Positions 1-35,373 of a stretch of DNA of 64,000 bases are shown one piece after another. Numbering within the stretch: the first letter of the stretch is position 1; every line of letters starts with the position of its first letter. Made by a program: the position numbers and the translations under genes. The notes beneath the pieces are model-generated. The model searched no databases. It saw only the letters and a program-made list of their open reading frames with translations, and was not told the DNA's origin. The stretch is taken from the NCBI RefSeq assembly GCF_041248615.1, contig NZ_CP158426.1; one strand, written 5' to 3'. The stretch comes from Escherichia coli. GTDB lineage: Bacteria > Pseudomonadota > Gammaproteobacteria > Enterobacterales > Enterobacteriaceae.

Positions 1-249
1 GTTAAGCAGCTCTTCTTCCAGCACGTTTTCGCCGATAATCCCAAGGTCTACCACGCCGTCCATTACCAGACCGGGAATGTCGTCGTCACGCACGCGCAGA
101 ATATCAATCGGCATGTTTTCTGCCATCGCGATCAGGCGCTGGGTGTGAAGATTGATTTTAATGCCACAGCGCGCCAGCAATTCGCGTGAGTCATCACTTA
201 AACGGCCGGATTTCTGCATAGCTATGCGTAAACGAGTGTTGTCTGTCAT
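1..249 (-). CDS. hisG: ATP phosphoribosyltransferase HisG, N-terminal 83 codons; gene continues beyond window start
   Basis: Reverse-complement from 249 reads ATG ACA GAC AAC ACT CGT ([20 protein letters not shown]...), recognised as HisG N-terminus; lies downstream of hisL/attenuator. Confidence 0.9.
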
Positions 250-296
250 TTTCTTATTCCTCTTTAAACCTGTCTGAACCGTTATCAACAGCGCAA

Positions 297-330
297 TAAA
301 AAAGCCCCCGGAAGGTGATCTTCCGGGGGC
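297..330 (-). terminator. his operon attenuator (rho-independent terminator hairpin)
   Basis: GC-rich perfect stem gcccccggaag/cttccgggggc with 5-nt loop followed by T-run on minus strand, between hisL and hisG. Confidence 0.8.
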
Positions 331-394
331 TTTCTCATGCGTTCATGCACCACTGGAAGATCTGAATGTCTTCCAGCACACATCGCCTGAAAGA

Positions 395-445
395 CTAGTC
401 AGGATGATGGTGATGATGGTGGTGTTTAAATTGAACGCGTGTCAT
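395..445 (-). CDS. hisL: his operon leader peptide (MTRVQFKHHHHHHHPD)
   Basis: 16-codon ORF with 7 consecutive His codons immediately upstream of attenuator hairpin and hisG. Confidence 0.9.
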   Translation of the reverse strand: MTRVQFKHHHHHHHPD

Positions 446-694
446 AAAAGTCTCTGTGAATGTTTATTCAACTGATGTCTTTTAACCTAAACCACTTTCA
501 CGTTAGAAAGCAAGGGCTTTTTTATATATTTTATGGCGATGGATTTGTTTAATGAATGAGCGGGGAAAGGAGGGGGCTAAGAGGACTGTCCTCTAACCTG
601 ACGGCACCAAAAATAGCGAAGCCTGGATTTTCGTCTCACTGACAATATCTTGATCTACAAACTAATTAATAAATAGTTAATTAACGCCCATCAT

Positions 695-712
695 TGTACA
701 ATGAGCTGTACA
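695..712. promoter_or_regulatory. yefM-yoeB operator (paired TGTACA hexamers)
   Basis: tgtaca-atgagc-tgtaca 16-33 nt upstream of yefM start; TGTACA-core palindromes are the known YefM-YoeB autoregulatory sites. Confidence 0.6.
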
Positions 713-727
713 TAAGAGGAGATTGAT

Positions 728-979
728 ATGCGTACAATTAGCTACAGCGAAGCGCGTCAGAATTTGTCGGCAACAATGATGAAAGCCGTTGAAGATCATG
801 CCCCGATCCTTATTACTCGTCAGAATGGAGAGGCTTGTGTTCTGATGTCACTCGAAGAATACAACTCGCTGGAAGAGACGGCTTATCTACTGCGCTCCCC
901 CGCTAACGCCCGGAGATTGATGGACTCAATCGATAGCCTGAAATCAGGCAAAGGAACGGAAAAGGACATTATTGAGTGA
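728..979 (+). CDS. yefM: antitoxin YefM (type II TA)
   Basis: 83-aa [48 protein letters not shown]...; overlaps next gene by 4 nt. Confidence 0.92.
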
Positions 980-1230
980 AACTAATCTGGTCTGAGGAGT
1001 CATGGGATGATTATCTGTACTGGCAGGAAACAGATAAGCGAATTGTTAAAAAGATCATTGAACTTATCAAAGATACCCGCAGAACACCATTTGAAGGTAA
1101 GGGGAAGCCAGAACCCCTGAAGCATAATTTGTCAGGCTTCTGGTCCCGACGCATTACAGAGGAGCACCGTCTGGTATACGCGGTTACCGACGATTCACTG
1201 CTCATTGCAGCATGTCGTTATCATTATTGA
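976..1230 (+). CDS. yoeB: toxin YoeB (ribosome-dependent mRNA interferase)
   Basis: 84-aa ORF, GTG start overlapping yefM stop (GTGA); recognised YoeB sequence. Confidence 0.9.
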
Positions 1231-3112: not shown

Positions 3113-3195
3113 AGAAAAATTATTATGACAAGCCTCTCATTCTCTTGTCATTTCCCCCCCATTTAGGCACAATGCGCCGCTGTCAAAAAATGACT

Positions 3196-3231
3196 AAAAA
3201 CCGACGTTTCATCAGCGTCGGTTATTTTTTG
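3196..3231 (+). terminator. rho-independent terminator after yeeY
   Basis: ccgacg-tttcatcag-cgtcgg hairpin followed by ttattttttg. Confidence 0.6.
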
Positions 3232-3378
3232 CTTCAAACCAATCATTCATACCAAGAGGCCGGGCTTCGTACCGGATAGATATTTACTAAAAATCGACAG
3301 TTGTTGTCGCTGAGGAATCCAAAAAAATGGGGCAATTTTTTGCTTACGCGACGGTTATCACCGTAAAGGAGAATGACC

Positions 3379-11510: not shown

Positions 11511-11954
11511 TTAGCGACAGCCTTCTTCTGTATGCAGCAAGGCAAAAAGTTCTGCAACTCCATTGTTATTAACCGCACTGGTTACTAACACATTGTGCGC
11601 TCCAGCTTCCCGTAACCAACTTTTCACCAAAGATATTTGTTCCATGCTGGCTAAATCTGCTTTGGTGACTACTCCAATGACCGGGCGATTCATTGACGAG
11701 GTAAAGCCTGGCGAAAAAGGGGACCACGGTGCGTCCGCATTAAGCACCAGGGCGATAATGTCCGCTTCGCAGGCGCTGACCAACAGAGCACTGTAGAGGC
11801 TGCGGTTTTCGAGGTATTCGCCTGGTGTATCAATGGTGGTCGGGGACCAGACGATTGCCTGCGTTTTCTGATAATGAATATTTTCGCCACGCAGACATTG
11901 CGTGAGTGACGTTTTTCCGCACTGGCTGGGGCCGATGAGCATCATACGTTGCAT
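11511..11954 (-). CDS. pduV: EutP/PduV-family small GTPase
   Basis: 147-aa ORF with P-loop GPSQCGKTS; last gene of pdu operon. Confidence 0.85.
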
Positions 11955-11958
11955 AACG

Positions 11959-12309
11959 TCAGGTCCGCGTAATGGGGCAGGCGGTAAAGCGCATCATTTC
12001 ACCCAGCGTACGGGTAACCTGGCTAAGTGCATATTCAATGGCAGAAACATCACCAGTCAGCACTACGGCACCGGTAAAACGATCAAGAAAACCGATCTCT
12101 ACAGCGCCTGATTTTGTGGCGATATCACATGCGATGATAGATGCTTCGCTGGGGGTAATTGTCAGAATGCCAATAGCAGAAACGGTGTCTGGTAAACCCA
12201 ATTTCTTAAACAGATCCTTCCCTGGATTGGCGATGACATGTGCCAGCGTGACCTGCTTACCAGGGACATATTCCTGAATCATCCGTTCAGTTGTGTGCTG
12301 AGTTGTCAT
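11959..12309 (-). CDS. pduU: BMC shell protein PduU (circularly permuted BMC domain)
   Basis: 116 codons from [19 protein letters not shown]; start overlaps pduT stop by 1 nt. Confidence 0.85.
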
Positions 12310-12863
12310 TATCCCTCCACCATCTGACGCCACATGGCTTCATGTGGACGGGCAATCACCGACCGATAGACCAACAAACCTTTTTCTCCCGCACGCTCGC
12401 TGGCGACAGAGACCGCGTTATTAACATCTGAAATATCGCCAGCAACCACCATGTAGCATTTACCGCCAATGCCAAAAGCCATATGCACGCGAACAAGAAT
12501 GACATTCGCAGCTTTGACAGCACAATCGGCAGCGTCAATGCAGGCGGCGACACTCCAGGTTTCGACTACGCCGACAGCCCGGTGCTGTTCAACTTGGTTC
12601 AGTCCGCTGGTTGCAGAAAGGAGGCTGGGATGAATATTCGGCAGGACAAGACTGTCGACCAGCATTTCACCAGCAAGGGAAGCACCGCTGTTGATGGCCT
12701 GTTGCACCGCGCCCACATCGCCACCGAGCATCAGCAGAAATTTTCCGGGGCATAGCGTTTTGCTGACCAGTAACTCAACGTTGGCGCTTTTCAGCATGGC
12801 GTCGCCGGTTTCCATCCCTTTCGCGATACTGCTAAGTTCTAAAATACCTACCGCTTTCGACAT
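12309..12863 (-). CDS. pduT: BMC shell protein PduT (tandem BMC domains)
   Basis: 184-aa ORF with two BMC-like repeats ([11 protein letters not shown]..., [14 protein letters not shown]...). Confidence 0.88.
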
Positions 12864-12865
12864 CG

Positions 12866-14209
12866 TTAACCTCTCACAAGCGTAATCGCGTTTTCTGTCA
12901 CATCGCTGACCATGCCATCAATACTGGCATGAATGGGGGCACCTAATGTGCCGTGTGGAATTTGACCTACACATTGCCCATGAACGACGCGATCGCCTTT
13001 TTGTACACACGCAATTGCGCTGGCACCGATGTGCTGGCGTAACAATAACGTCACTTTTTCGGTCTGAGGCACCTGTTCAGACAATGGCGCATCCTGATAC
13101 CACGGGGTTAAGCCAAGTCTGGTTACCAGCCGTTTTACGGGAATCAGTCGATAATTTGCCATGGGATCTGCAGGATTTAAGGTACCTTCGTAACGGAGAT
13201 TTTGTGCGCGTAATTCTTGCTTAAGCAGGCGGTTTATGCGCATTGGTGAAATTCCTACCGGACAGGCGACGCTGGCGCAGACGTTGCACTCCGAACAGGT
13301 GAGCGCCGTCAGTAACAGTTGTGGCGTAGCGAGCTGTTGGTAGTTAACCGCACGTACTAATAAATGGGGTGCCAGTTCGTGACCGATTAAATGACGTGGG
13401 CAGAGATCGGTACACAAGCGGCATTGCTCACAAACAGTTTTCGCGACGGCAAGTACGCTGCGGTCATTCTGCATTCGACGTTGGATCAGTGAATGAGAGT
13501 TGGGTAAAACCAGCAAGCCGCCAGTGGTTTTGCTGACTGGTGTGTCGAGCGATGTGATCAAACTTCCCATCATCGGCCCGCCATTGATAAAACCAGGAGC
13601 ATCCACTGTTGCGCCGCCCGCCAGCGCCAGGACTTCACGTAAAGACATGCCGATGGGGACGGTTACCGTTATTGGTTTCGCCACTGCACCATTAACGGTG
13701 AGTGTGCGGCGCGTCACTGGATACTGTTGCTCGACGGCTCTGGCAATATTAAGTACGGTTTGAACATTATTGACCACCACACCGACGTTAACGGGTAATG
13801 CAGCGGGTGGAACACGGCGACCAGTTGCCATCCAGATGGTCAGCACTTCGTCTCCTGCGGGGTAAACGTCGGGCAAAATATGCAGGCGGATATCCGGTGG
13901 TAACAGTGGTGTGAGTGCGTTTATTGCCCGTTGATATTTCTCTTTCAGCGCGATGATTCCGCTACTGGCCCCGGTGGCTTTCATCGCATAGTGAACACCG
14001 CGAAGCAGGCGGCTGGCTTGCTGCGCCATTAACTGTTGATCCACTTTCAACATTGGTTCGCATTCCGCCGCATTCACCAGGAACGTGTCAACACGCGCTT
14101 GTAGCTTAATATGGGTTGGGAAACCTGCGCCGCCAGCACCCACGACACCAGCTGCCTGTACTCGCTCGCGGATGGTCTGGTCGTCGCAGGAGGTTAACTC
14201 GACGTTCAT
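12866..14209 (-). CDS. pduS: cobalamin reductase PduS (RnfC/NuoF-like Fe-S flavoprotein)
   Basis: 447-aa ORF with two CxxCxxCxxxCP ferredoxin motifs ([25 protein letters not shown]) and N-terminal glycine-rich nucleotide-binding motif. Confidence 0.88.
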
Positions 14210-15318
14210 AACAACTCCTCGAGCAGTTCTGCAATAGCGGTGGCATCAGCCGTACGCGGGTTGGTACGCAACGTTGCATCCGCCAGTGCCGCCTGAACCA
14301 TATCTGGTATGCGTATTGACCATTCTGCTTTTTTTTCTTTCAGCACATTGGTAAGAGTCGGTAGCTTACAGGTTGTTTTAAGCTGTTCAATATGTTGAAT
14401 AAGTATATTCAGGCTGGCGGTGTCATTGGCGTTGTCCGGGCATAAATGGCACGTTTTCGCCAGCCGGGCGTAGCGTTTGGCAGCGCGCGGATCGCCAGCA
14501 TTAAAGCGGATAACCGCCGTGAGCAGGAGCGCATTCGCCAGGCCGTGTGGCAGATGAAACTGTCCGCCGAGTTGATGAGCAATTGCATGGTTTAATCCCA
14601 GTCCAGCCTGGCTAAAGGCCATTCCTGCAAGTGTCGATGCATTATGCATTTTGCCACGGGTGGCGAGACAATCGCCTTTCTTCACTGCAGTGGGCAGGTA
14701 TTGAAAAACAATTTGCACGGCTTTTTCGACCAGTGCATCCGTGAAGTCGCTGGCGCGGGGAGAAACATAAGCTTCAAGCGCATGGGTTAAAACATCCATC
14801 CCGGTATTGGCCGTTATCGCCGGTGGCACGCTGACGATCAGAGATGGATCAAGGATCGCGATATCCGGATAAAGTGCATTATCGAAAAGGGGATATTTAA
14901 TCCCTTTCTCAGGATCGCTGATGACACAAGCACTGGTCACTTCGGAACCGGTACCGCTGGTGGTAGGAATGGCTACGCAGGTTTCAATTTCAATGCCACA
15001 CTGGCGACCGAACCAGACAATCGCTTTTGCGGCGTCCAGGGCAGAACCGCCGCCAAAACCGATAACCACATCCGGGCGTAAAGTCTGCATTTGCGCAATG
15101 CCTTTCACCACGGTCTGGATAGTTGGGTCGGGCGTTATTTCGCTAAAAATACTAAGACGATTACTGTCGGGCAGCGCCTGATGCAACGTGTTAATGAGTG
15201 GTGAGCGTGCCAGAAAGACGTCGCAAATAATCCAGATGTGTTTATGAGAGAAACGGCTAAGTACCTTGAGACTTCCCGGTCCGCTGTATAAACGCGTCTG
15301 CAGTGAAAAAGTATTCAT
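14206..15318 (-). CDS. pduQ: 1-propanol dehydrogenase PduQ (iron-containing alcohol dehydrogenase)
   Basis: 370-aa ORF with GGGS...D motif and His-rich metal site typical of Fe-ADH; overlaps pduS start. Confidence 0.88.
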   Translation of the reverse strand: MNTFSLQTRLYSGPGSLKVLSRFSHKHIWIICDVFLARSPLINTLHQALPDSNRLSIFSEITPDPTIQTVVKGIAQMQTLRPDVVIGFGGGSALDAAKAIVWFGRQCGIEIETCVAIPTTSGTGSEVTSACVISDPEKGIKYPLFDNALYPDIAILDPSLIVSVPPAITANTGMDVLTHALEAYVSPRASDFTDALVEKAVQIVFQYLPTAVKKGDCLATRGKMHNASTLAGMAFSQAGLGLNHAIAHQLGGQFHLPHGLANALLLTAVIRFNAGDPRAAKRYARLAKTCHLCPDNANDTASLNILIQHIEQLKTTCKLPTLTNVLKEKKAEWSIRIPDMVQAALADATLRTNPRTADATAIAELLEELL

Positions 15319-15328
15319 TTCCGTTTCT

Positions 15329-16714
15329 CTAGCGAATTGAAAAGCCGCTGGTTAACACGCAGCGTCGTGAGCGGGCAAAAGTCCGTGCTGACGTTGTCCC
15401 TTCTCCGGTCGGTGTTGCAATGGTAAAGGTCGTAAAGCCTTCGCCGCCGACGCCAATACCCGCCCAGGAGGGGCCGTTTTTGACAAAGATTGAGGTTTGC
15501 ATAACGCGTGCGGTAAGGTTGAGCCGTGAGACGTTCTGCGAGTGCATAATTGCCGTGTGGTGCAAGCCGTCTTCCACTTTCAGCGCCAGGGTGAGAGCGC
15601 TATCAAAATCGTTGACCTTCACAATGGGCAGCATTGGCATCAGTTGTTCACAAGTAACCCAACTATCATTGGCGTCGACAACAGCAATCAGTAGGCGCGG
15701 CGCTTTTGCGGGCAAAGGGAGGCCTGCCGCTTCCAGCAAGGCTGATGGGCTTTTCCCAACCAGTTTTTTGTTGGCGCTACCGTCTGGCAGGCAAATTGCA
15801 CGCAATTTCTCCGTTTGCTCATAGTTAAGAAGAAGCGCGCCAAAACTTTGCATCTGCTGAATTAAATAATCTGCCACTGATGCCACGACAATCAGGCTTT
15901 TTTCAGCAATACACGGCAGGTTGTAATCAAATGAAGCGCCGTTGATGATGTCCTCGGCGGCTTTCACAATATCCGCCGTTTCATCGACGATGCACGGAGG
16001 GTTACCCGCTCCGGCACCAATCACTTTCTTGCCACTTTTCATTCCCATGGCGACGATCCCCGGACCGCCGGTAATCGCCAGAACGCTGATTTTAGGGTGC
16101 GCCATCATCTGTTCGGTTGCAGCAAAGGTCGGTTCAGATACGGTAACGATCAGGTTATGAATGCCACTACAACGAAACGCGATGTCTTCGATTGTGGTAA
16201 TCAGTTTTAACGAAACGTATTTGGCTCCCGGGTGTGGACTGAAGTAGACGCTATTACCTGCTGCCAGCATGCTGATGCTGTTGTTAATGATGGTTTCCGT
16301 GGGGTTGGTGCTTGGCGTGACCGAGCCAATAACCCCAAACGGGGAGTATTCAAACAAAACCATGCCACCATCACCGGTTAGTGCAGTGGTGGTTAAATCT
16401 TCAATTCCTGGCGTGTTATCAAGTGCCGCTTTGTTTTTTAGGTACTTATCTTCTTTATTTCCCATCCCCGTTTCTTTGGCGCTTTCTTCTGCCAGTTCGG
16501 TCAGGCGGGGTATTAATTCTTCGCGAATGGCGCTGATAATGGCGCTACGGGTTTTAAGCGGGCACTGTTGAAAGCGTAAAAAGGCCTGGTGTGCTGCGCA
16601 GACCGCTTCATCAACAGTCTGGAAAATAGCGTTTCTTTGCATTCGTTGCGTAGCGGGGGCAAGCTGCTCACGCAGAATATTGCGGATCAGTGTTTCTAAT
16701 TCAGAGTTATTCAT
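15329..16714 (-). CDS. pduP: CoA-acylating propionaldehyde dehydrogenase PduP
   Basis: 461-aa aldehyde dehydrogenase-family ORF (catalytic Cys context PCIAEKS). Confidence 0.88.
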   Translation of the reverse strand: MNNSELETLIRNILREQLAPATQRMQRNAIFQTVDEAVCAAHQAFLRFQQCPLKTRSAIISAIREELIPRLTELAEESAKETGMGNKEDKYLKNKAALDNTPGIEDLTTTALTGDGGMVLFEYSPFGVIGSVTPSTNPTETIINNSISMLAAGNSVYFSPHPGAKYVSLKLITTIEDIAFRCSGIHNLIVTVSEPTFAATEQMMAHPKISVLAITGGPGIVAMGMKSGKKVIGAGAGNPPCIVDETADIVKAAEDIINGASFDYNLPCIAEKSLIVVASVADYLIQQMQSFGALLLNYEQTEKLRAICLPDGSANKKLVGKSPSALLEAAGLPLPAKAPRLLIAVVDANDSWVTCEQLMPMLPIVKVNDFDSALTLALKVEDGLHHTAIMHSQNVSRLNLTARVMQTSIFVKNGPSWAGIGVGGEGFTTFTIATPTGEGTTSARTFARSRRCVLTSGFSIR

Positions 16715-17718
16715 TGGTTTACTCCCACGTTAATTGCCGCCATTGCGCTTTGGGCAATATCCATGTCTTGTTCAACGCTACCACCGCTGATGCCAAGCCC
16801 CCCGAGCAATATTCCGTCACGCCAGAGGGGGAAGCCGCCACCAAAGGTGACGACTTTGCCTTGCATATGGCTTTCGAGCCCGTAAAGCGGCGCGCCGGGT
16901 TGCACGGTATCAGCAAGTTTGTGGGTTGCCGTTTTCATCGCCACGGCAGTCCAGGCTTTTTTCGGTGCCAGTTCACTGCTGACCAACAGGGCATCAGGCA
17001 TCCGCCAGGTAACACTTTCTGTTCCGTTGGCATCAACAATGCTGATGACAACGGGAATATGCAGTTCATCCGCGCGCATTGCCGCACTACGAATGAGCTG
17101 GTGAAGATCCTGAAAAGTGAGCGGCATTGTGCGTTCCTTCAATGCTGGTGTGTGGTTGGCTTTGTGATAACGTTTTGTGATTTCCTGAATTATCAGGTTT
17201 TGATGAGCGACGTTGTCTTCCACGCGGGCGAGGGCATACAGGCAATCGGAAAGTCGGTTGATATAGTGCAGCAAAACATTCCGGACGGTGATTTCCGTTG
17301 TCAGTTCAACCAGACGTCTTTCAGCACGTCGAGCCACCGTGCGGGCGAAATGCATACGGCTTGCAGCTTCACATCGCCCAGGCAGAATGAAGCTGTGAAC
17401 TGGGGGGACGGCGTTCATTGCGCTATCGATCGCGTTTTCCAGCGCGGCAATTTCTTCCGTACCGATGTAACGCAGCTGCGCTGACGGCTGTTCGCTTTCA
17501 CTGGCAAGTTCGGCGCTAAACCAAAATATCTGTTGTTGAATGGCTTCCAGTAAGATGCGATGGCTTTCGATGGCGGTGGCGCAATAACACAGACTGAGTG
17601 TCGCGTTCAGTTCATCCAGCGTGCCATAGGTTTCGACACGTAGATGAGTTTTGCTGACGCGCTGTCCGGTAAATAAAGACGTACTTCCTGAATCACCTGT
17701 TCGGGTATAAATTGCCAT
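16711..17718 (-). CDS. pduO: ATP:cob(I)alamin adenosyltransferase PduO (PduO-type ATR + C-terminal DUF336-like domain)
   Basis: 335-aa ORF beginning MAIYTRTGDSGSTSLFTGQRVSK (PduO-type ATR N-terminus). Confidence 0.88.
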   Translation of the reverse strand: MAIYTRTGDSGSTSLFTGQRVSKTHLRVETYGTLDELNATLSLCYCATAIESHRILLEAIQQQIFWFSAELASESEQPSAQLRYIGTEEIAALENAIDSAMNAVPPVHSFILPGRCEAASRMHFARTVARRAERRLVELTTEITVRNVLLHYINRLSDCLYALARVEDNVAHQNLIIQEITKRYHKANHTPALKERTMPLTFQDLHQLIRSAAMRADELHIPVVISIVDANGTESVTWRMPDALLVSSELAPKKAWTAVAMKTATHKLADTVQPGAPLYGLESHMQGKVVTFGGGFPLWRDGILLGGLGISGGSVEQDMDIAQSAMAAINVGVNQ

Positions 17719-17729
17719 CTTTCAGCTCC

Positions 17730-18005
17730 TTAGCGCGAAAGCGTATCGACAATGCCGACCACTGCCAGGTCGATGGCCTCGTTAGGGCCGGAAAACACAT
17801 GTCTGGCGCTGGAACCACTGCTGAGGAGTACCAACTCACCAACGCCTGCGCCGACTGAATCAACGGCAACTTCGTCGCCGGTTAATGGCGTGAGAGGCAG
17901 TTCGCCGTCAGCACTGACCCGGCGAACCAGCAGCAGTTTTTTCCCGATCAGAGATGGTGATTTTTGCGTGGATACTACCGCGCCAGTGACTCGAGCCAGA
18001 TGCAT
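17730..18005 (-). CDS. pduN: BMC vertex protein PduN (EutN/CcmL family)
   Basis: 91-aa [30 protein letters not shown]... Confidence 0.85.
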
Positions 18006-18008
18006 AGG

Positions 18009-18500
18009 TTACTCCTGCCTAATTAACTGAATATTTCGGGTAATTGCCGCTTCACGAGCCAGTGCGGTCACACAACATTTCCGCTGTAACACCAGTATTC
18101 CCGAGCTTAACTGTGCGATATCGGCATAACTTAAAAGTCGATCACGATGAAGGTAGATCGGTTGCCCTTGTTCGTCGCACCAGCTTAGCGGTAGACGGGC
18201 GAGAGTCTTCAATTCAATGGCGTTCAGGAAATGACGCTGCAACGACAATTGAATGTGCATTCCCCAGGCTAACGCTTCGTGTATCTGGATTGCTGCTCGA
18301 TCTGACGTTTCGTTCTCCGCAAGTTGTCGCAGCAGCGGCAGATCGACATATCGGATTTGTAATGACGCATACTGATGAACGCTCTCTTGAACGCTGGCGT
18401 CTCGCAGTTGAAAAACAGTCAGCACGAGTGCTTTTCTCGCACGTTGTTTAAGGCGAAAAACCACCTCGTCAACAATACGTTGCATCAGCATGTTATTCAT
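18009..18500 (-). CDS. pduM: microcompartment protein PduM
   Basis: 163-aa ORF in conserved position between pduL and pduN. Confidence 0.8.
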   Translation of the reverse strand: MNNMLMQRIVDEVVFRLKQRARKALVLTVFQLRDASVQESVHQYASLQIRYVDLPLLRQLAENETSDRAAIQIHEALAWGMHIQLSLQRHFLNAIELKTLARLPLSWCDEQGQPIYLHRDRLLSYADIAQLSSGILVLQRKCCVTALAREAAITRNIQLIRQE

Positions 18501-19129
18501 GGCACTGACACCAGTGTGGCAAAAACGTCAGGGCTATCAGCGCCTGCGGCGTTGGCCTCATCGGTATCAATATGCATTTCAAGACGCATATCCGGAGAGA
18601 CGCGAACAGCGACGTTTTCGAATATCAGTCGTCGCTCACCACCTTCAATGGCAACCGCCACTTTATCGCCATGCGTAACGCCATAAATCAGGGCATCCAG
18701 CGGAGACATATGAATATGCCGTTGCGCGACAATGACGCCAGATGTGATCTCCAGTTCCGCAAATGGGCTTATCAAACGAATCCCCGGAGTGCCGCTGAGA
18801 TCGCCTGACATGCGTAGCGGGGCGGTGATCCCTAACGTTCTGGCGTCCGTCCGGGAAATTTCCACCTGGCTTGCATTGCGTAGCGGCCCCAACAAGCGAA
18901 CGTTGTGCAATTTGCCTTTTGGTCCCTCCAGCGTAACAACCTGTTCAGCAGCGAATTGGCCAGGTTGCATTAACGGCTTTTTCTCGCTAATCGGTTGTTC
19001 AGGAAAAAGACGCAAATAATCCGCTGTTGAAAGATGAATATGGCGACTGGAAACGCCCAGTGGGATAGGGCGCTCGCGCATCTCATCCAGAATCTGGCTC
19101 ACTGTTTCCTGCAGGGTTTGTTTATCCAC
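18497..19129 (-). CDS. pduL: phosphate propanoyltransferase PduL
   Basis: 210-aa ORF; conserved position and size; His-rich metal-site residues (RHIHLS, RHIHMS). Confidence 0.85.
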   Translation of the reverse strand: MDKQTLQETVSQILDEMRERPIPLGVSSRHIHLSTADYLRLFPEQPISEKKPLMQPGQFAAEQVVTLEGPKGKLHNVRLLGPLRNASQVEISRTDARTLGITAPLRMSGDLSGTPGIRLISPFAELEITSGVIVAQRHIHMSPLDALIYGVTHGDKVAVAIEGGERRLIFENVAVRVSPDMRLEMHIDTDEANAAGADSPDVFATLVSVP

Positions 19130-19131
19130 TG

Positions 19132-19554
19132 CTACTCCCCTCGCTTATTGGCGTACAGGCAAAGTGAGCGGGGCTCACCTTTTTGCCGCTGACATGCCGG
19201 GTCAAGACACAAATTACAACTGATAATCTCTGAGGTGACGGTTGTTGCTGGTGTTTTGCTTGTTTCAACCGTCACGGTCAATGCTTCAATTGTGTGGGGC
19301 AGAATGCCGTCTCCCGGGCGGGCAATCACTTTGTGTGCGACAAGGCCATTTCGCTGTCCGGCGAAACTGGCTCCCGTCGCGATCGCCGCATTAACCGAGG
19401 CGACGTCACCGGTGATTTTGATGAGCGTCCAGCCTGAGCCATTGGTCTTCTCAAGGCCAACCAGCGTGATGGACGCGGCTTTTGCCATAGCGTCTGCGCA
19501 ACTGATGGCGAGAGCCAGACCACTGACTTCAAGTAATCCCAGTGATTGCTTCAC
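19132..19554 (-). CDS. pduK: BMC shell protein PduK (BMC domain + Cys-rich C-terminal tail)
   Basis: 140-aa ORF; N-terminal BMC domain (LGLLEVSGLALAISCADAMAKAA) and C-terminal CNLCLDPAC motif. Confidence 0.85.
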   Translation of the reverse strand: MKQSLGLLEVSGLALAISCADAMAKAASITLVGLEKTNGSGWTLIKITGDVASVNAAIATGASFAGQRNGLVAHKVIARPGDGILPHTIEALTVTVETSKTPATTVTSEIISCNLCLDPACQRQKGEPRSLCLYANKRGE

Positions 19555-19577
19555 GCTGTGCTCCTTAGCGAATGGGG

Positions 19578-19853
19578 TTATGCTGATTTAGGTAAAATAG
19601 CCTCAACATCACTGTGTGGGCGCGGGATGACATGGCAGGATTTCACTTCGCCAACGGCGCTTGCGGCGGCGCTTCCTGCATCAACGGCGGCTTTTACTGC
19701 GCCAACATCGCCACGGACCATCACCGTAATCAGACCCGAACCAATCTTTTCATAGCCAACCAGCTGCACGTTGGCGGATTTAACCATGGCATCTGCAGCT
19801 TCAATTGCGCCAACTAACCCTTTTGTTTCAACCAGTCCTAGTGCGTTGTTCAT
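19578..19853 (-). CDS. pduJ: BMC shell protein PduJ
   Basis: 91-aa canonical BMC-H protein [29 protein letters not shown]... Confidence 0.9.
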
Positions 19854-19872
19854 ACTGCATTTCTCCTGTGGA

Positions 19873-20223
19873 TTATGAGTGGAGTTCCCGGAAGGGAATC
19901 CCTTTTACCAGGCGGGCAGCGTTAGAGCCAATGCTGCGCCGGGCATGGTTATCTTGTTGATACATCAGCGTAAACAGTGGCGCTGATGCCGGTAAGTTTT
20001 TGTAATGCACAATCAGTTTTTCCTGATCGCAGGCAATGCCAACCAACAGGGGAGATTGACTAGCAGCCAGCCAGGCGCTATCGATAACTTCACCTGACGG
20101 AATGTGTTGAATGCGAAAGGGAATACCTTCCTCTTCAATGCCAAGAAGCACCTCATCCCATATAGTGATGCAGTTACCGATCTCCATGACGACGATGGCT
20201 GGTGCACGCTCTTTACTTTCCAT
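19873..20223 (-). CDS. pduH: diol dehydratase reactivase small subunit PduH
   Basis: 116-aa ORF overlapping pduG stop; conserved position. Confidence 0.85.
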
Positions 20224-22045
20224 GAATCGACTCCTTGTGCCAGGCGATGAGTAGCCCAGTAGCTACCGCGTTGCGCGGACCTTCGCTACCACGGATATTC
20301 CCCCGTCCGGCGACCAATCGATAATGCGCCAATGCATCGGTGACTAACTGCGGTACTTCGAAATCCAGCGAAGAACCGCCCACCAGAACGACGAACGGAA
20401 TATCGCGAATATTTCCGGCAGGGCTTACCTGACGTAGCGCGCGCAGGGCATTGGTTACGAAGACACGCTCTTTCGCACTGCGGCGGACAGCGCGTACTTT
20501 TTCCAGCGTCAAATCACCGGGAATGGGCACCAGTTCGTCGGGTTTCACTACACAGACGCGGGCAAATACATGGGGGGATAGGGGAGTAGGGAAGAACTGA
20601 ACGCTGCCATCTTCATGGCGTAAGTGGAACAGGCTTTCTACTTTTGCCAACGGGTACTTTTTGATTTCTTCTGCCAGATAACGATCATTTAAGCCCAGCT
20701 CACGAGCGATAATCATCGTTACCATGTCGCCCGCTCCCGCAAGGTGAGTGGCAACAATTTCTCCTTTCTGATTGATGATGGAGGCATCGGTAGAGCCTGC
20801 ACCTAAGTCCAGAATTGCCAGTGGACGTGTGGTTCCAGGGGTAGTCAAGGCCCCCTGAATGGCGGCTTCTGCTTCTGCGCCTCCGACCTGAACATCAACA
20901 TGCAGTTTTTGCTTAATTTCACTGGCGATCATTGCCATTTGCAGACGGTCGGATTTCACCATAGAGGCAATACCCACAGCCTGTTCCAGTGAAAATTCAC
21001 CTGCCAGACCGCCGGTTACGCTGACGGGGACAGAGGTATCTATCGCCAGCAAATCCTGAATAAAAATTTCGTTGCTGGGTTTGTTGGTCAGTTCCGCCAT
21101 GGTCTGGCGAACATGTTCCAGCATTCCGCCGATGTTGGTGCCTGGTTTTCCCGTCACGTTTTCCAGTTTTGGGCACTCACCGACCGCTTTCATAATGGCA
21201 TCGGCACCAGCAGCTACATCAACGCGCGTTGTGCGCCCGGCAGAAAGCAGTTCGATATTTCCGGCGGGTATCGAACGGGCTTTAACGTCGCCAGAAGGCG
21301 TTTTCACTACCACTGCTGAACGGTTGCCGATTAGCGCCCGCGCGACAGGAACAATATTTTTAGTCTCTTCAGCATTGAGGGCGAAAACGGTGGCAATCCC
21401 ATACGGGTTAGACAGGGTTTCGATAACTTTCCCGGGAACGGCAACTTCAATTGCAGCCAGCATGCCGAGCGGAATACGATCGATGTAGAGGACTTCATCA
21501 ACAATAGGTACAGCAATTTCCAGGCGGTTACTGACCAGCACGCCATCGTCGCGTTGCAGAATAACGCCAGTCAGCTGATATCCGGCACGTACGGAGGCGT
21601 TTATCATCGTCGCGATATCGGCAAAATCAAATGCCGATGACACCACCAGGATGTAAGGTGTGTCCGCCGGGCGTGTTAATAACTCTTGCGGAGTGATGGT
21701 GAGCCCTACGCCCAGCCCCACTCCGCCCGGAGTTTTCGGGTTGTGACCGATCATGGTTGATTCAGTGATGATGGTTTCAGTGATGGTTTCCATCGCCACA
21801 TCACCAATGACCGGAGTTGCTTCGTTGATACGAATAAGCGAAATATCGCTAACATTGATGCCGACTTTTTTCGTTGCCTGTGCGAGCGCCTCCTGAATAC
21901 CATGGACGTTACGCAACGTACCTTTAATTCCGGTGGTTTCCGCCAGGGCGCTACTCACGAACGACAACTCTCCAGTTGCACTGAGCGTTGCCAGCGCAAC
22001 CTCTGTTGATGAGTTGCCGATATCAATGCCTGCTATATATCGCAT
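20213..22045 (-). CDS. pduG: diol dehydratase reactivase large subunit PduG
   Basis: 610-aa ORF MRYIAGIDIGNSSTEVALA... (ASKHA/actin-like ATPase N-terminus). Confidence 0.9.
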   Translation of the reverse strand: MRYIAGIDIGNSSTEVALATLSATGELSFVSSALAETTGIKGTLRNVHGIQEALAQATKKVGINVSDISLIRINEATPVIGDVAMETITETIITESTMIGHNPKTPGGVGLGVGLTITPQELLTRPADTPYILVVSSAFDFADIATMINASVRAGYQLTGVILQRDDGVLVSNRLEIAVPIVDEVLYIDRIPLGMLAAIEVAVPGKVIETLSNPYGIATVFALNAEETKNIVPVARALIGNRSAVVVKTPSGDVKARSIPAGNIELLSAGRTTRVDVAAGADAIMKAVGECPKLENVTGKPGTNIGGMLEHVRQTMAELTNKPSNEIFIQDLLAIDTSVPVSVTGGLAGEFSLEQAVGIASMVKSDRLQMAMIASEIKQKLHVDVQVGGAEAEAAIQGALTTPGTTRPLAILDLGAGSTDASIINQKGEIVATHLAGAGDMVTMIIARELGLNDRYLAEEIKKYPLAKVESLFHLRHEDGSVQFFPTPLSPHVFARVCVVKPDELVPIPGDLTLEKVRAVRRSAKERVFVTNALRALRQVSPAGNIRDIPFVVLVGGSSLDFEVPQLVTDALAHYRLVAGRGNIRGSEGPRNAVATGLLIAWHKESIHGK

Positions 22046-22054
22046 AGTTCGTCC

Positions 22055-22573
22055 TTAATCGTCGCCTTTCAGTTTTTTGCGCTCGACATAAAGTTCCGCA
22101 GCTTCACGGACAAATGCAGCACAAATTTTGGCCTGATAACGCCGTTCAAGATCGTCAGCAATGGCAATAAGTTCTTGCTTAGTCGAACGATAAGGGCGTA
22201 ACGCATTGTAGATTTCGAGGATGCGATCATCCGGTACTGAGGTAAGCTCAGCGGCGCGTTCAAAATTCATCGCCAGGCGATCGCGACCAGCATCTCTGGC
22301 AATCGCGGCCTGAATACGCAATGTTTCAGGGGTTATACGCATATCCTGGGCGGTGACGTTATCGCTGAGTACATTTTCCAGAGTGAAATCGTCGAGCGTT
22401 TTATTGGTCGCCGTTTTAACCCATTCCGGATGTTTATTTGCCAGCGGATAATCCGTCACTTTGGCGCTCTGTATTGACGCGTTGGGTGCCGCAGAAACAG
22501 GAGCTGCATCCTGTAAACTGTTCATGCGATTCAACACGTCCCTGACCATCGACTCAATTGCATCGGTATTCAT
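22055..22573 (-). CDS. pduE: propanediol dehydratase small (gamma) subunit PduE
   Basis: 172-aa ORF in conserved order after pduD. Confidence 0.88.
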   Translation of the reverse strand: MNTDAIESMVRDVLNRMNSLQDAAPVSAAPNASIQSAKVTDYPLANKHPEWVKTATNKTLDDFTLENVLSDNVTAQDMRITPETLRIQAAIARDAGRDRLAMNFERAAELTSVPDDRILEIYNALRPYRSTKQELIAIADDLERRYQAKICAAFVREAAELYVERKKLKGDD

Positions 22574-22587
22574 GAAGGTTTCCTTTG

Positions 22588-23256
22588 TTAAAACGTCACG
22601 CGCAGTTCTTGCGGTTTTTTGCCAGTGACCACGTACTTCGTCTCTTTAATATGCAAAATGGCAGATTTGGCCTGGTATTTCGGCCGCGCCATTTGATCGT
22701 TGAGGGTCGGCACCGGTTGTGGAGACTCACGCTTTGCATAACGCGCGGCGTTTTTGCCAATCTGACGATAAGTTTCCAGCGTCAACAAAGGCGCTTGTGG
22801 GAATAGTTCCAGGTTAGACAAGGGAGGAAGACCTTGCTGGTGGATAACCGTTGTGCCTTTCGACTGAATACCGATAGCAATACCTGAACCACTAAGACGA
22901 TCGCCTTCGACTGCTACGAATGCGACATCGGACGATTTAAAGCAGCGAATCACACGGGCTTTAATGCCTTCTTCTTCGATACCAGCAATCACTTCGCGCA
23001 AGATGTTTTTATGCGGAATACCGATGATATTGACGGTTTGCGCCAGGCCGAACGCCGGGCCTACAGCAATAATGACTTCATCTTGCTGAGTGCCTTGTTG
23101 GGCTTCGCCAATTTCGGCCAGAAAAGTTCCGGTATCTGGCGCGGAAGAGACAGTTGCACAGGCAGGTGCGCGAAATGAAACGGGCTTGTCGCTGGTTTGC
23201 ATTTCTGCCAGCACGTCTTCGATAATCTGACGCAGTAATTTTTCGTTAATTTCCAT
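22588..23256 (-). CDS. pduD: propanediol dehydratase medium (beta) subunit PduD
   Basis: 222-aa ORF in conserved order after pduC. Confidence 0.88.
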
Positions 23257-23265
23257 TTCTCACCC

Positions 23266-24930
23266 TTAGTCAATTTCGTTGGGATCAAGTGCACCGGGAA
23301 TATTTTTGATCTCTTCCCAGCGTTCCCCTTGCAGGCGGTAACCTGTAGCCGGTCCGGCGTAATCATTGACGTCATTGACCGCAGAGAGCACTTGTCCGTC
23401 ATCGACGATGATGGCTGAGGTATGGAGATAATCGCCGGTCAGTTTTGCTTTTTGCATGTTGAGCATGTCTTGGGCGACATCGGTAAAACCGCCTTGCGCC
23501 AGGGCTTTCACCACTTCCAGGCTGTTCCGGTTTTTATTGATAATCTCCTGGGCGAACTTGATGTCTTCCACAATATTGCGCTCAGGCATATCTTTTGAAC
23601 CGTGGGCATAGGTTGCCGCTTCGACTTCTTCATCGGTAATAGGCGGTAGTCCCATACCGGCAAAGACAGCCTGTAAAGCGCGAGCGGCTTTATTGCGGAT
23701 AGCGATAACATCTTCTTCGCGTACTGGTCGCAGGCCGCCATCAACCTTCAGGTCACGCTGAATGACGTTGTAATCATCGAAGTCTTCAGCATCTTCGTTT
23801 GAACCAGCAAACATGTTGTCGTAGTTCGGCACAGCGGAAAAACCGGAAGAGATAAAGTCGGTACCTGGCAGAAACTGCATCAGGAAACGTGCGGTACGGC
23901 GCATATCCGAGTGGGTAAAGGTCTGGTCATTACTGGAGGCGCATTCCAGATCCAGCGATGAGCAAATTAAGTTTTCCGCTAATACTGCGCGGATGCCTGA
24001 TGGCACAGCCGATGGAACACCGATGCAGCTTACCGAACCATTCTGTAGACCCTGAACTCCTGCGGCTTTGGTGATGTAAATGCAACGAGCCTCGAGATAA
24101 AGCATTGATTTGCCTTCCGCGTAACCCATCTGTACTTCAGAGCCGGAGCCGGAAGTAAAGCGCATTTTTAAGCCGCGAGACGCATAGGATGACGCGAGAA
24201 ATCCTTTTGACCACGGGGTGTCATCGCCATCGGTGAAAACAGGTTCTGTACCATAGACAGAAATTGTTTCGGCGTAACAGGTGTGGCCTAACATACCGAG
24301 TTTCAGTTCGGTGGCTTCTTCCAGTGAACACTGGGTCAAGACGCCCGGACGTCCCACCTGTGAGCCGACCAGCAGGGCGATGGCGTTGAACGGGGCATAG
24401 CGAGCAACGGCAACGGTGGTTTCCTGTTCATCAAACCCGCGCCATGCGCCTTCAGCTGCGTCGGCGGCAATTTGTACCGGGTTATCTTTGACGTTGGTGA
24501 CGTGAGCCTGTTGTGATGGTGTTCGACGGGCGCGCATTTTCTGCATCGCCATCATCATCTCTACCACGTTCATCTGCGAAACAACTTCGACGATTTTTGC
24601 AGGCGTCATTGCTGTGGTAAGGGGAACGATATCGCTACGTTTGACATTTGGATCGCACAACATATTGGCAAGTTTTACCGAATCCATCGCGATGACTTCT
24701 TCTGCACGCGCGAGATTGATGCCGTAGCGGGCGATAAAGTGGTCGATCAGGTCAAACTGGCTGGCGGGTTTTCCATCCAGTTCGGTAACGACGCCGTTAA
24801 CAATTTTGATTGACGGTTTAGGATCGTTCGGGCTTTCCATCGCAATGAAGCCTTCTTCAATCCACTCTTTAACGAAACCGTCCTGGTTGACCGGGCGTTT
24901 TGCCAGTGCTTCAAATCTTTTCGATCTCAT
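23266..24930 (-). CDS. pduC: coenzyme B12-dependent propanediol dehydratase large (alpha) subunit PduC
   Basis: 554-aa ORF MRSKRFEALAKRPVNQDGFVKEWIEEGFIAMESPNDPKPSIK... Confidence 0.92.
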   Translation of the reverse strand: MRSKRFEALAKRPVNQDGFVKEWIEEGFIAMESPNDPKPSIKIVNGVVTELDGKPASQFDLIDHFIARYGINLARAEEVIAMDSVKLANMLCDPNVKRSDIVPLTTAMTPAKIVEVVSQMNVVEMMMAMQKMRARRTPSQQAHVTNVKDNPVQIAADAAEGAWRGFDEQETTVAVARYAPFNAIALLVGSQVGRPGVLTQCSLEEATELKLGMLGHTCYAETISVYGTEPVFTDGDDTPWSKGFLASSYASRGLKMRFTSGSGSEVQMGYAEGKSMLYLEARCIYITKAAGVQGLQNGSVSCIGVPSAVPSGIRAVLAENLICSSLDLECASSNDQTFTHSDMRRTARFLMQFLPGTDFISSGFSAVPNYDNMFAGSNEDAEDFDDYNVIQRDLKVDGGLRPVREEDVIAIRNKAARALQAVFAGMGLPPITDEEVEAATYAHGSKDMPERNIVEDIKFAQEIINKNRNSLEVVKALAQGGFTDVAQDMLNMQKAKLTGDYLHTSAIIVDDGQVLSAVNDVNDYAGPATGYRLQGERWEEIKNIPGALDPNEID

Positions 24931-24948
24931 AAATCTGCCTCAGAGAAT

Positions 24949-25761
24949 TCAGATGTAGGAAGGGCGATCGTTTTTCGGTGTATCGCCGAGAGTCGAAAGC
25001 ACGGTTTTACCGATTTCGCGTGCGGAGATGACCGCCTGGCGGACTGCGCCGGAGTCACCCGAGATAATCAGAATGACTTCATTGCTGTAGCTGGTGCCTT
25101 GAGCGGGGGAGCTGTATGCCACAACATCCACATTGGCGGACTTCAGCGCGGTGTCTGCCATCAGAACACCCACAGCAGCCGGAGCGCCGACAATAACGCC
25201 GCAAGCCCGTCCCAATGGTGCACCAAACGCTTTTTCCAGTGCATAGCTGGCGCGGGCGGTATATTGCAGCTCAAGATGTCCGGCTTCGTTGGCATAGACA
25301 TCGCCAAAGGTTCGATCGAGTTCTTTCAGGGCAACTTCAATACCGCGTTTCACGTCGGAAACATCGTTGCCACCTAAGAGGATCAATGAGCCGTGTCCGG
25401 CACCGCCTTTAGTATCGCGAGGAAGTTCAATGCTAATAACTTCAGTGTTGGTGGCTTTTACCGCTTCATCAGCGGCCATAATGTGTGGACCTGCGCCAAT
25501 ACGCGCACCCAGAATGCCAATGGAACGATAGCGTTTTTCAAGTTTCATTGCGTCCAACAGGGCGCTATCAACGTTCGCAATGACCAGACCTACAGTGTCG
25601 CCAATAGCGGTGCCAACAAATTCTGTTAATGTGCAGCTTTTTTCTGCCATAGCCGTCTCTCGTATTTGATGAGTGGTTTTCGGGAGAACCTCATGCTCTG
25701 GCGTCGCTACGCGAGCGATGACCTGCGCCATGATCTGTTCGACCAGTTCATTGCTGCTCAT
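24949..25761 (-). CDS. pduB: BMC shell protein PduB (tandem BMC; internal start at Met38 would give PduB')
   Basis: 270-aa ORF; second in-frame Met 37 codons in matches the known PduB/PduB' arrangement. Confidence 0.9.
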
Positions 25762-26042
25762 GGGTTAATTCCCTTTGGTAAGATTTTTTCGACATCGGTA
25801 TGTGGGCGGGGAATAACATGTACGGCTTTTACTTCGCCGACGTTACGCGCAGCTGCGGCACCTGCGTCTGTTGCCGCTTTTACCGCCCCGACATCACCAC
25901 GAACGATGACGGTCACCAGCCCGGAACCTATTTTTTCGTAGCCGACCAGCAAAACATTTGCCGACTTCACCATGGCGTCTGCGGCCTCTATGGCGGCAGT
26001 TAAGCCTTTGGTTTCTACCATTCCTAACGCTTCTTGTTGCAT
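25758..26042 (-). CDS. pduA: BMC shell protein PduA
   Basis: 94-aa canonical [34 protein letters not shown]...; first gene of operon. Confidence 0.92.
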
Positions 26043-26553
26043 AAAGACCTCGCCTGGATTTTTTTGACGATATGACTATAAAAAAAAGCGAGGAAAAAGA
26101 ATGGCTGACTTAATCGGCTAATGAGAAAAATTAATAGAGAACAAATATTATAAAATTGCTTTTATGAACTATATGTTGTTAATTTATTAGTTGTTTTGTG
26201 GATATTTCAATGTGAATTAATTGCGTTGGCTAGTGAGTTTAATCGCGAGTAATATTTCGTTGAGTTTAGTTCGAGGAAGGAACTGTGATATTTGTTTCAA
26301 TTTTATTATATCATGATGGCAATTTTTTATTGTGAAAGTTTGACAGTAATTATTACTTTCAACACTGATTAACGCTGTGTTGCATGATTCGGCAATGACA
26401 ATAATTTGTTATGTTAGCACGATTTTTACACGAGTCTGTCATGCATGTTGGCAATATTTTCTGCAGAGCAATTTTTTATAGTTGCGCTCGGTATACACAA
26501 CAATCAGCGCATAGTTGGCTGATAAAGAAAAACTCCGTAAAGAAGGTGTCACT
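26043..26553. promoter_or_regulatory. divergent pdu / pduF-pocR control region
   Basis: 510-bp AT-rich non-coding interval between divergently oriented pduA and pduF; in Salmonella this interval carries PocR-, CRP- and IHF-dependent promoters. Confidence 0.6.
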
Positions 26554-27363
26554 ATGAATGATTCACTCAAGGCGCAATGCGTTGCCGAGTTTTTAGGCAC
26601 CGGACTGTTCCTCTTTTTTGGCATTGGTTGTTTGTGCGCCCTGAAAGTTGCCGGGGCAAGTCTGGGACTGTGGGAAATTTGTATCATTTGGGGGTTAGGG
26701 ATTTCGCTTGCTGTTTACCTTACGGCAGGTATTTCCGGCGCTCATCTCAACCCGGCAGTTACCATTGCTCTGTGGCTGTTTGCCTCTTTCCCAGCCCGTA
26801 AAGTGCTGCCATTTTGTGTGGCGCAATTAGCGGGTGCTTTTGGTGGTGCGATTCTGGCATATTCTCTCTACAGCAGTTTATTTACCGATTTTGAATCTGC
26901 TCACAATATGGTGCGTGGTAGCGCAGAAAGTTTACAACTCGCCAGTATCTTCAGTACTTATCCGGCAGCGGCGATTAATGTATGGCAAGCTGCGTTGGTC
27001 GAAGTGGTCATAACGTCCATGTTAATGGGGTTGATTATGGCGTTGACCGATGACGGTAATGGCGTACCCAAAGGACCACTTGCGCCTTTACTTATTGGTA
27101 TTCTGGTTGCTGTTATTGGTGCTTCTACCGGACCATTAACCGGTTTTGCCATGAATCCAGCGCGTGATTTTGGACCTAAGATTTTCACCTGGCTTGCGGG
27201 GTGGGGAGAAATTGCGATGACTGGTGGACGCAATATTCCTTATTTCATTGTACCCATTATTGCACCGATCATTGGGGCATGTGTTGGTGCGGCGATTTAT
27301 CGCTATCTCATTGCAAAGAATTTACCTGTCAATAGTGTAGCGCCTAAAGAAATTAGCGAATAA
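26554..27363 (+). CDS. pduF: propanediol diffusion facilitator (MIP/aquaglyceroporin family)
   Basis: Two NPA motifs (HLNPAVT, AMNPARD); start placed at MNDSLKAQ (ORF track extends 13 codons upstream); start uncertain. Confidence 0.85.
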   Translation: MNDSLKAQCVAEFLGTGLFLFFGIGCLCALKVAGASLGLWEICIIWGLGISLAVYLTAGISGAHLNPAVTIALWLFASFPARKVLPFCVAQLAGAFGGAILAYSLYSSLFTDFESAHNMVRGSAESLQLASIFSTYPAAAINVWQAALVEVVITSMLMGLIMALTDDGNGVPKGPLAPLLIGILVAVIGASTGPLTGFAMNPARDFGPKIFTWLAGWGEIAMTGGRNIPYFIVPIIAPIIGACVGAAIYRYLIAKNLPVNSVAPKEISE

Positions 27364-27565
27364 CGAAATAATCTGGCAGTTATAAACGTTTATTTTTTTA
27401 CTGTTTGTGATCTGCTTTCCGAACTTATTAAAAAGTCTCCCGCTTCATGGAGGCTTTTGTTATTGTCCTTTGTGCTTCTCGTCAGTAAATCATCAGGGAT
27501 GATGTGAAGATTAAATGTAAAACAATTGTTTTGCTATAACAATAAATTAACTGGGAGGTTTTATC

Positions 27566-28480: not shown

Positions 28481-28584
28481 AGTAAATGCCCCAAAAAAAG
28501 AGGACGGTTTAAATAAACTCTGCAATGAATAATTAACGTTATTTACCTGTTATGGGAAAAGTGAAATCAGCTCATAACATACGC

Positions 28585-28735
28585 TGACAGGTGTGGCACA
28601 TTTGTGCCTGGGAAGAGGGTGAAAATCCCTCGCAGCCCCCGCTGCTGTAATGCTGACAAACCCGAAAATGCCACTGATCGCGAGATTGGGAAGGTCGGGA
28701 GAGGATGACGCTAAGCCAGAAGACCAGCCAGTCAG
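28585..28735 (+). promoter_or_regulatory. cobalamin (adenosylcobalamin) riboswitch
   Basis: Conserved core gggaagagggtgaaaatccctcgcagcccccgctgctgtaa and B12-box-like gccactg...gggaaggtcgg...agccagaagaccagcc; same position as the Salmonella cob operon leader. Confidence 0.75.
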
Positions 28736-28964
28736 TCAATACCAACAACTTCGGTGGGAAGTGGGTTGCCCGGAAGCGTCCGGTAGAGTACCGGCGCGTC
28801 TTTATACCCCTACCACCCTGAAAGGATCAGGGTATGGCGGCATCATTTAGTTCTTTCATCGCAGTGCCGACAGGCACCAGGGCTGCACTTAAGGTGTGGC
28901 AATCTTGTTTCATGGCTCATCAACCAGACCGCCATTACAGGAAACTAAGTGGAGGGCGAGAGGC

Positions 28965-30821: not shown

Positions 30822-30832
30822 AGAGACGTGAC

Positions 30833-35336: not shown

Positions 35337-35373
35337 CAAAAAGCCCGCTATAAAAGCGGGCTTTTCAGAAATT

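Follow-up and report, generated by a model that had tools for sequence, protein, structure and literature searches.

The window analysed here, a 64,000-nucleotide stretch of Escherichia coli DNA, carries near its start the ordinary and already known yefM-yoeB toxin-antitoxin locus. It is the same locus as that of K-12 and a member of the family in the strictest sense, and nothing at it is new in kind. Both genes are identified by sequence, their open reading frames are intact, the catalytic residues of the toxin are in place, promoter and operator are conserved, and the genomic position is that of K-12. We put at roughly 95% the probability that the chromosomal type II operon of E. coli is found here in intact form, at its customary site facing away from the his operon, and acts as it does in K-12.

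The yefM-yoeB pair and its place beside the his operon

Over its whole length the window shows zero differences from a segment of E. coli NRZ14408 (NZ_LT599825.1, 2019672-2083671), the RefSeq annotation of which places yefM and yoeB at exactly the coordinates found here. The first-pass annotation had claimed a type II pair at 695-1230 adjoining the his operon. Both open reading frames were found there, and the description "adjacent to the his operon" is correct because hisL, the His leader and the start of hisG lie directly upstream in divergent orientation. The gene order hisG-hisL / yefM-yoeB-yeeZ is common to the window and K-12. The features of the locus are the following:

1-249, minus strand: start of hisG, upstream of yefM and divergent from it
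296-419, minus strand: His leader (Rfam RF00514, 131.6 bits)
395-445, minus strand: hisL, upstream of yefM and divergent from it
728-979, plus strand: yefM, encoding the antitoxin and primary autorepressor, 83 aa (by K-12 identity and family models)
976-1230, plus strand: yoeB, with a GTG start, encoding the ribosome-dependent mRNA endonuclease toxin and co-repressor, 84 aa (by K-12 identity and family models)

The antitoxin is identical at 83 of 83 residues to the crystallised K-12 protein (PDB 2A6Q, chain A), and its RefSeq accession, WP_001259255.1, is the same as in MG1655. It scores 186.6 bits with the NCBIfam equivalog model NF008499 (cut-off 121; residues 1-83 of 83) and 96.8 bits with Pfam PF02604, the Phd/YefM family (against 29.8; E 6e-28). 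The gene lies directly upstream of that of its cognate toxin, with which it shares a 4-nt overlap, GTGA. Given the identical sequence and the experiments carried out in K-12 (PMC1802561, PMC7167474), YefM of the window is expected to neutralise YoeB, to be degraded by Lon and to bind the operator.

The toxin (RefSeq WP_000767820.1) matches chain E of 2A6Q at 83 of its 84 residues, the sole difference being N28I. The first-pass annotation was right in calling the pair a known type II module, but the toxin is not identical to that of K-12. The equivalog model TIGR02116 (Txe/YoeB) gives 129.8 bits against a cut-off of 51.8, and Pfam PF06769 gives 142.9 bits against 27 (E 3e-42) over profile positions 1-80 of 80. 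The catalytic residues had been named in advance as the place where divergence would tell against the identification, and no such divergence was found, because E46, R65, H83 and Y84 are all kept, as are K49, N51, R59 and E63, each at its expected position. The latter four contact the A-site codon in ribosome-bound structures (PMC6821326). By analogy with the protein of structures 4V8X, 6OXA and 6OXI, to which it is identical at all residues save one, YoeB of the window would be expected to cleave mRNA in the ribosomal A site and to arrest growth when YefM is lacking.

YoeB also gives weak matches to the RelE/StbE, YafQ and ParE families, with about 21 bits for the RelE-superfamily models as compared with the 129.8 bits of its own. 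RelE, HigB and YafQ share with it the RelE-type RNase fold and cleavage of mRNA in the A site; they are monomers, in contrast to YoeB, which acts as a dimer (PMC6821326).

The alignment to K-12 for which the first-pass annotation had called gives 98.2% DNA identity with MG1655 over 881 bp. The window shares with the K-12 system (2A6Q/2A6R/2A6S; ribosome complexes 4V8X, 6OXA, 6OXI and 6OTR) the locus between hisL and yeeZ, the order of the genes and their 4-nt overlap, and differs from it in YoeB N28I, six synonymous coding SNPs and eight listed non-coding SNPs. The coding SNPs number seven, one in yefM (970, synonymous) and six in yoeB, among which the change at 1058 is the only non-synonymous one; a ratio of six synonymous changes in seven is consistent with purifying selection.

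The promoter, the operator and how the module would work

The paired TGTACA motifs that the first-pass annotation reported as overlapping the promoter are indeed there, with a long palindrome over the -10 and a short one around the transcription start, as described for K-12 (PMC1802561, PMC7730913). The start of 695 given for the whole feature needs amending: the pair is real, but that coordinate omits 4 nt of the long palindrome together with the -35 hexamer. The elements upstream of yefM are as follows:

674-679, plus strand: -35 TAGTTA of the yefM-yoeB promoter, pyy (K-12 hexamer and 17-bp spacer, PMC7730913)
691-704, no strand assigned: L (long) operator palindrome TCATTGTACAATGA, the primary YefM site, identical to the DNase I-protected L repeat (PMC1802561)
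697-702, plus strand: -10 TACAAT, within the L palindrome (PMC7730913)
707-712, no strand assigned: S (short) operator repeat with TGTACA core, 12 bp centre to centre from L
708, plus strand: probable transcription start, a G 20 nt 5' of the ATG, placed from K-12 primer extension (PMC1802561, PMC7730913)
717-721, plus strand: Shine-Dalgarno AGGAG, 6 nt 5' of the yefM ATG, fitting the published description (PMC1802561)
728, plus strand: start codon (ATG) of yefM

In K-12, pyy has the -35 TAGTTA, a 17-bp spacer and the -10 TACAAT, which is covered by L (PMC7730913); transcription starts at a G inside the S repeat, placing the yefM ATG at +21 (PMC1802561, PMC7730913), and the ribosome-binding site stands 6 bp before that ATG (PMC1802561). 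The K-12 operator combines the L palindrome over the -10 with the TGTACA core of S around the start, the two being 12 bp apart by their centres (PMC1802561, PMC7730913), and two such cores at this spacing within 80 bp of the yefM ATG can be taken as its signature (PMC1802561). Every published K-12 promoter and operator element is unchanged in the window, the -35, the -10, the L palindrome, the S core and the Shine-Dalgarno sequence being identical. The two TGTACA cores occupy 695-700 and 707-712, the second ending 16 nt before the ATG at 728, and the first forms the core of the perfect 14-bp (7+7) palindrome. The arrangement TGTACA-N6-TGTACA occurs once in the 64-kb window, where 0.01 occurrences are expected from shuffles; the single TGTACA is not enriched there (15 found, 13 expected). 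The SNPs that separate the window from K-12 near the operator, at 688, 705, 713 and 727, all fall outside L, the S core, the -10 and the -35, and the further non-coding SNPs lie farther upstream (595, 597, 602 and 648).

The 90 nt upstream of yefM were aligned across five chromosomal copies of E. coli and five copies on plasmids (from Salmonella, Citrobacter, E. marmotae, E. cloacae and Pantoea). The sequence TTGTACAAT, the GGAG and the ATG are invariant in these 10 copies, out to the Pantoea plasmid, and the remainder diverges. The -35 is constant in the five E. coli copies and reads TGGTTA or TAGTTA in the enterobacterial plasmid copies, and on the plasmids the S core departs from TGTACA at one or two positions (AGTACA, TGAACA, TGTATT). 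An invariant L core beside a variable S matches the published view, in which L would serve as the primary site and S as the secondary one.

A homologous pair, Axe-Txe of Enterococcus faecium plasmid pRUM, likewise joins a Phd/YefM-type antitoxin to a YoeB-type toxin, and its promoter, pat, shares with pyy the L and S repeats built on a TGTACA core and the -10, TACAAT (PMC7730913). In pat, however, L lies in the spacer, S lies partly over the -10 and the -35 is TTGCTT; pat is also about 40-fold stronger than pyy and less fully repressed (PMC7730913). The window has the operator arrangement of pyy, not that of pat.

A generic scan of 250-1400 for sigma-70 promoters and terminators called no promoter upstream of yefM and no intrinsic terminator after yoeB. 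The scan missed pyy because the -35 matches the consensus at only 3 of 6 positions and so falls below threshold. We therefore rejected the reading of this miss as absence of a promoter, the published pyy -35 itself having only 3 of 6 consensus positions, a degree of match that agrees with the published weakness of pyy (PMC7730913). When RNA folding was compared with that of shuffled sequences, the operator (z = -0.72), the left border of the cassette described below (z = 0.09) and the region after yoeB (z = -1.16) gave no significant result; since none of the three is stabler than its shuffles, the idea of a structured RNA element was rejected. Just 3' of the yoeB stop codon, at 1235-1253, there is a hairpin with a perfect 8-bp A/T-rich stem, ATTCATTC-ATA-GAATGAAT, followed a few bases on by TTTT. 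It is not significantly stable relative to shuffles (z = -1.2) and went uncalled in the terminator scan; at best it may be a weak terminator. Because it lies in the flank shared with the cassette-free strain BL21, we assign it to the upstream region of yeeZ.

We propose that the module works as follows. The weak sigma-70 promoter would give rise to a bicistronic mRNA beginning about 20 nt 5' of yefM, on which the ATTGAGTGA overlap would couple translation of yoeB to that of yefM. A YefM dimer would bind first L, over the -10, and then the TGTACA repeat of S, over the start. The YefM2-YoeB complex would hold L and S more tightly than the YefM dimer does, and as a consequence of this tighter hold on both sites the operon would repress itself, RNA polymerase being kept off the promoter. 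YefM would also sequester and neutralise YoeB directly. Upon its loss by Lon-dependent degradation, as when Lon is overproduced or at 42 C, YoeB would be set free, and the free YoeB dimer, in the ribosomal A site, would cut between nucleotides 2 and 3 of the codon by means of E46, R65, H83 and Y84. In the window, the transcription start, the DNA binding, the lability to Lon and the RNase activity are thus expected by analogy with the K-12 experiments.

A present/absent cassette and the rest of the window

The operon forms part of a segment that is present in some E. coli genomes and absent from others:

578-1235, no strand assigned: 658-bp present/absent cassette comprising yefM, yoeB, their promoter and 86 bp of DNA upstream (BLAST against BL21(DE3))

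The borders were defined by pairwise BLAST; a three-way MAFFT alignment including BL21 was dropped for this purpose, as it forced unrelated filler onto the cassette. In BL21(DE3), homology to the flanks of the window extends to 577 and resumes at 1236, and in place of the cassette there are 217 bp of unrelated A/T-rich DNA (739-955 of the extracted BL21 locus, L002). This filler contains two inverted units that resemble the REP consensus. Carriers of the cassette, at a query coverage of at least 80%, number 4211 of 5426 genomes, and matches to the flanks alone were obtained in about 1200 of the 5426, including O157:H7. Judged by these flank-only matches, the cassette appears to be missing from O157:H7 and from about 1200 genomes in all, the sequence of BL21(DE3) being the one that was itself examined. 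The GC content of the cassette is 44.2%, against 49.3% for the window.

Direct repeats or a target-site duplication were looked for where the cassette meets its flanks; the search returned just a 7-mer (AATGAAT), which is unconvincing, so that there is no evidence for an insertion of the transposition type. An inverted repeat is located at the left border (578-600 in the window; 739-761 of the equivalent K-12 locus, L001). In K-12 it forms a perfect 11-bp stem, GCTAAGAGGAC/GTCCTCTTAGC (-16.5 kcal/mol, z = -2.0), which in the window is cut to 6 bp by the SNPs at 595 and 597 (z = 0.1). The repeat may be a relic of cassette insertion.

Related copies are carried by plasmids. Those at 82-85% identity span window positions of about 664-1231, that is, from promoter to stop codon, and reside on large plasmids, those of Salmonella and Citrobacter being recorded with IncF replicons and that of E. 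marmotae being typed as rep_cluster_2313; copies at 74-77% identity occur in Enterobacter (IncF) and Pantoea. The three largest "plasmid" matches, in records of 0.39-4.8 Mb, were discounted, since they look like chromosome filed as plasmid. The plasmid examples examined (Salmonella Milwaukee pIncFII.1, Citrobacter TSA-1, E. marmotae pEM148, E. cloacae pM12X01451 and Pantoea vagans pPant3) have the same two genes, the 4-nt overlap and the L core, and their YoeB proteins are 80-94% identical, with all catalytic residues kept. They differ from the window in their plasmid location, their mismatched S, the presence of Asn28 in every one, and their unrelated flanks.

A review reports that the toxin-antitoxin content of E. 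coli strains varies, that sites of toxin-antitoxin insertion hold REP sequences in other strains, that such modules may have anti-addiction roles, and that yefM-yoeB had no effect on fitness at 42 C (PMC7167474). The polymorphism of the cassette, the REP-like filler and the plasmid relatives are in line with what is known (PMC7167474). It is conceivable, though on balance we would not favour it, that the chromosomal copy operates by the same mechanism in another role, being mainly a selfish element or an anti-addiction device against plasmid-borne YoeB instead of a stress-response module. The sharp borders and low GC content of the cassette, the REP-like filler at the empty site, the conclusions of the review (PMC7167474), the existence on plasmids of Salmonella, Citrobacter and E. 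marmotae of copies that comprise exactly the promoter and both genes, and the related copy on an Enterobacter IncF plasmid all point in this direction. The proposal concerns selection, however, and not mechanism, and it is compatible with our main explanation, an intact operon acting as in K-12.

Beyond the cassette, the window holds several features that we record in their own right. At 11511-28480 lies the full operon for a propanediol-utilisation (pdu) microcompartment, together with pduF and pocR; the segment 11001-36000 is covered to at least 80% in just 631 of 5426 genomes. E. coli WP4-S18-ESBL-07 is collinear with the window up to 11693, inside a pduV-like gene, and past this point carries a CP4-44-like island (yeeS, yeeT, cbeA, cbtA, yeeW and others). 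With its collinearity ending there, it was dropped as a reference for the whole window and NRZ14408 was used instead. A cobalamin riboswitch at 28572-28746 (RF00174, 109 bits) is followed, over 28965-31912, by a 145-aa open reading frame annotated as "hypothetical protein" and then by cobU-cobS-cobT; this arrangement may be what is left of a larger cob/cbi operon. Three tRNA-Asn genes lie within 4.3 kb (32965-33040, minus strand; 35374-35449, minus strand; 37198-37273, plus strand), the third being followed by a frameshifted tyrosine integrase gene (37435-38696) and a small island, the region as a whole extending over 32965-47521. The island comprises genes for a TPR protein and for an RHS core protein (4.2 kb, 42735-46916), as well as an EFASI RNA (40706-40833, minus strand) and a C4 antisense RNA (42267-42355, minus strand). 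At 53837-61802 an Ig-like-domain protein of the giant adhesin type is encoded by a gene of about 8 kb that is annotated as frameshifted, and next to it lies a frameshifted IS3-family transposase gene (62488-63640). Two sRNAs score above the Rfam gathering threshold: STnc240 (3158-3232, plus strand), upstream of yoeI/plaP, and STnc230 (27422-27505, minus strand), between pduF and pocR.

Natural variation of the toxin

The single amino acid difference from K-12 in the pair results from the following change:

1057-1059, plus strand: codon 28 of yoeB, ATT (Ile) in the window and AAT (Asn) in K-12, by an A to T SNP at 1058

Among 5426 complete E. coli genomes, 90 have the I28 allele according to an exact 31-mer centred on this SNP; with a 56-mer there are 87 exact matches and 3335 genomes one or two bases off. 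Asn28 is kept in 9 of the 10 enterobacterial YoeB copies aligned, down to 80% identity, the window being the exception, and is found in all five of the solved homologues shown (E. coli, A. tumefaciens 6N90, S. aureus 6L8E and 7BWF, and 8YXV). It is listed as part of the hydrogen-bond network at the YoeB homodimer interface, together with E7, Y13, Q17 and R35, an interface that is otherwise largely hydrophobic and is built from the alpha1/alpha2 surfaces with W5 and W10; an engineered monomeric YoeB retained RNase activity and was about 20 C less stable (PMC6821326). Among the interface residues W5, W10, E7, Y13, Q17, N28 and R35, which are a property of the E. coli protein and do not define the family, six of seven are kept in the window, position 28 being Ile.

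N28I is located at the homodimer interface, outside the catalytic site. Because YoeB reportedly needs no dimerisation for its RNase activity, the substitution should spare catalysis, and YoeB-I28 is most likely a functional toxin. The conservation of Asn28 among homologues nevertheless means that some effect on the stability or dimerisation of the toxin is possible, and since YefM is identical to that of K-12, nothing suggests that the antitoxin has changed in compensation.

N28I may thus alter dimer or thermal stability, making the window's allele a natural variant with a changed activation under heat stress or a reduced toxicity, an idea that we regard as rather improbable. Put as a rival reading, and an equally doubtful one, the module would be real and its I28 toxin attenuated: with Ile28 the hydrogen-bond network is one member short, which would lower dimer and thermal stability and with them toxicity, while the RNase chemistry stayed intact, and the effect would be strongest under heat stress, where YoeB reportedly acts. 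The place of Asn28 in the network, the lower stability of the monomeric protein (PMC6821326), the conservation of the residue and the rarity of the Ile allele all argue for such an effect. Against it, an interface that is largely hydrophobic could tolerate Ile or even pack more tightly with it, the allele persists in its 90 genomes, from varied hosts, with both open reading frames and the operator intact, and the antitoxin is unchanged.

A second variant of the toxin was observed outside the window, in E. coli O25b:H4-ST131 (NZ_OX637964.1). There codon 65 of yoeB (729-731 of the extracted locus, L014) is CTT (Leu), where the window and K-12 have CGT; Arg65 contacts the scissile phosphate. The ST131 gene also carries T19A. 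The L65 allele, searched as an exact 31-mer, is present in 418 of 5426 complete genomes, EC958 among them. Judged by sequence, the lineage as a whole appears to have kept its antitoxin alongside a toxin that is inactivated or attenuated.

That the pair in the window is itself a decaying, non-functional remnant that merely resembles yefM-yoeB, as might be imagined from the frequent loss or inactivation of chromosomal toxin-antitoxin modules, the absence of this cassette from many genomes and the Leu that replaces the catalytic Arg65 in ST131, is highly improbable and already disfavoured by the full-length open reading frames, with no frameshift or stop, the unaltered YefM, the complete set of YoeB catalytic residues, the intact promoter, operator and Shine-Dalgarno sequence, and the single non-synonymous change among the coding SNPs.

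The yefM-yoeB system is among the best characterised of type II toxin-antitoxin systems: crystal and ribosome structures exist, its promoter has been mapped and its operator footprinted. The useful result of our analysis is therefore a negative one, in that the pair was correctly identified and is ordinary, and its value as a discovery is small. The sharp borders of the cassette and its plasmid relatives illustrate the mobility of such modules. What value remains lies in natural variation, namely N28I at the dimer interface in the window and R65L at the catalytic Arg in ST131, which could serve as natural mutants for the in vivo roles of YoeB dimerisation and activity. If the attenuating effect of N28I were true, this substitution and R65L of ST131 would together suggest that chromosomal yoeB has been attenuated independently in several lineages of E. 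coli.
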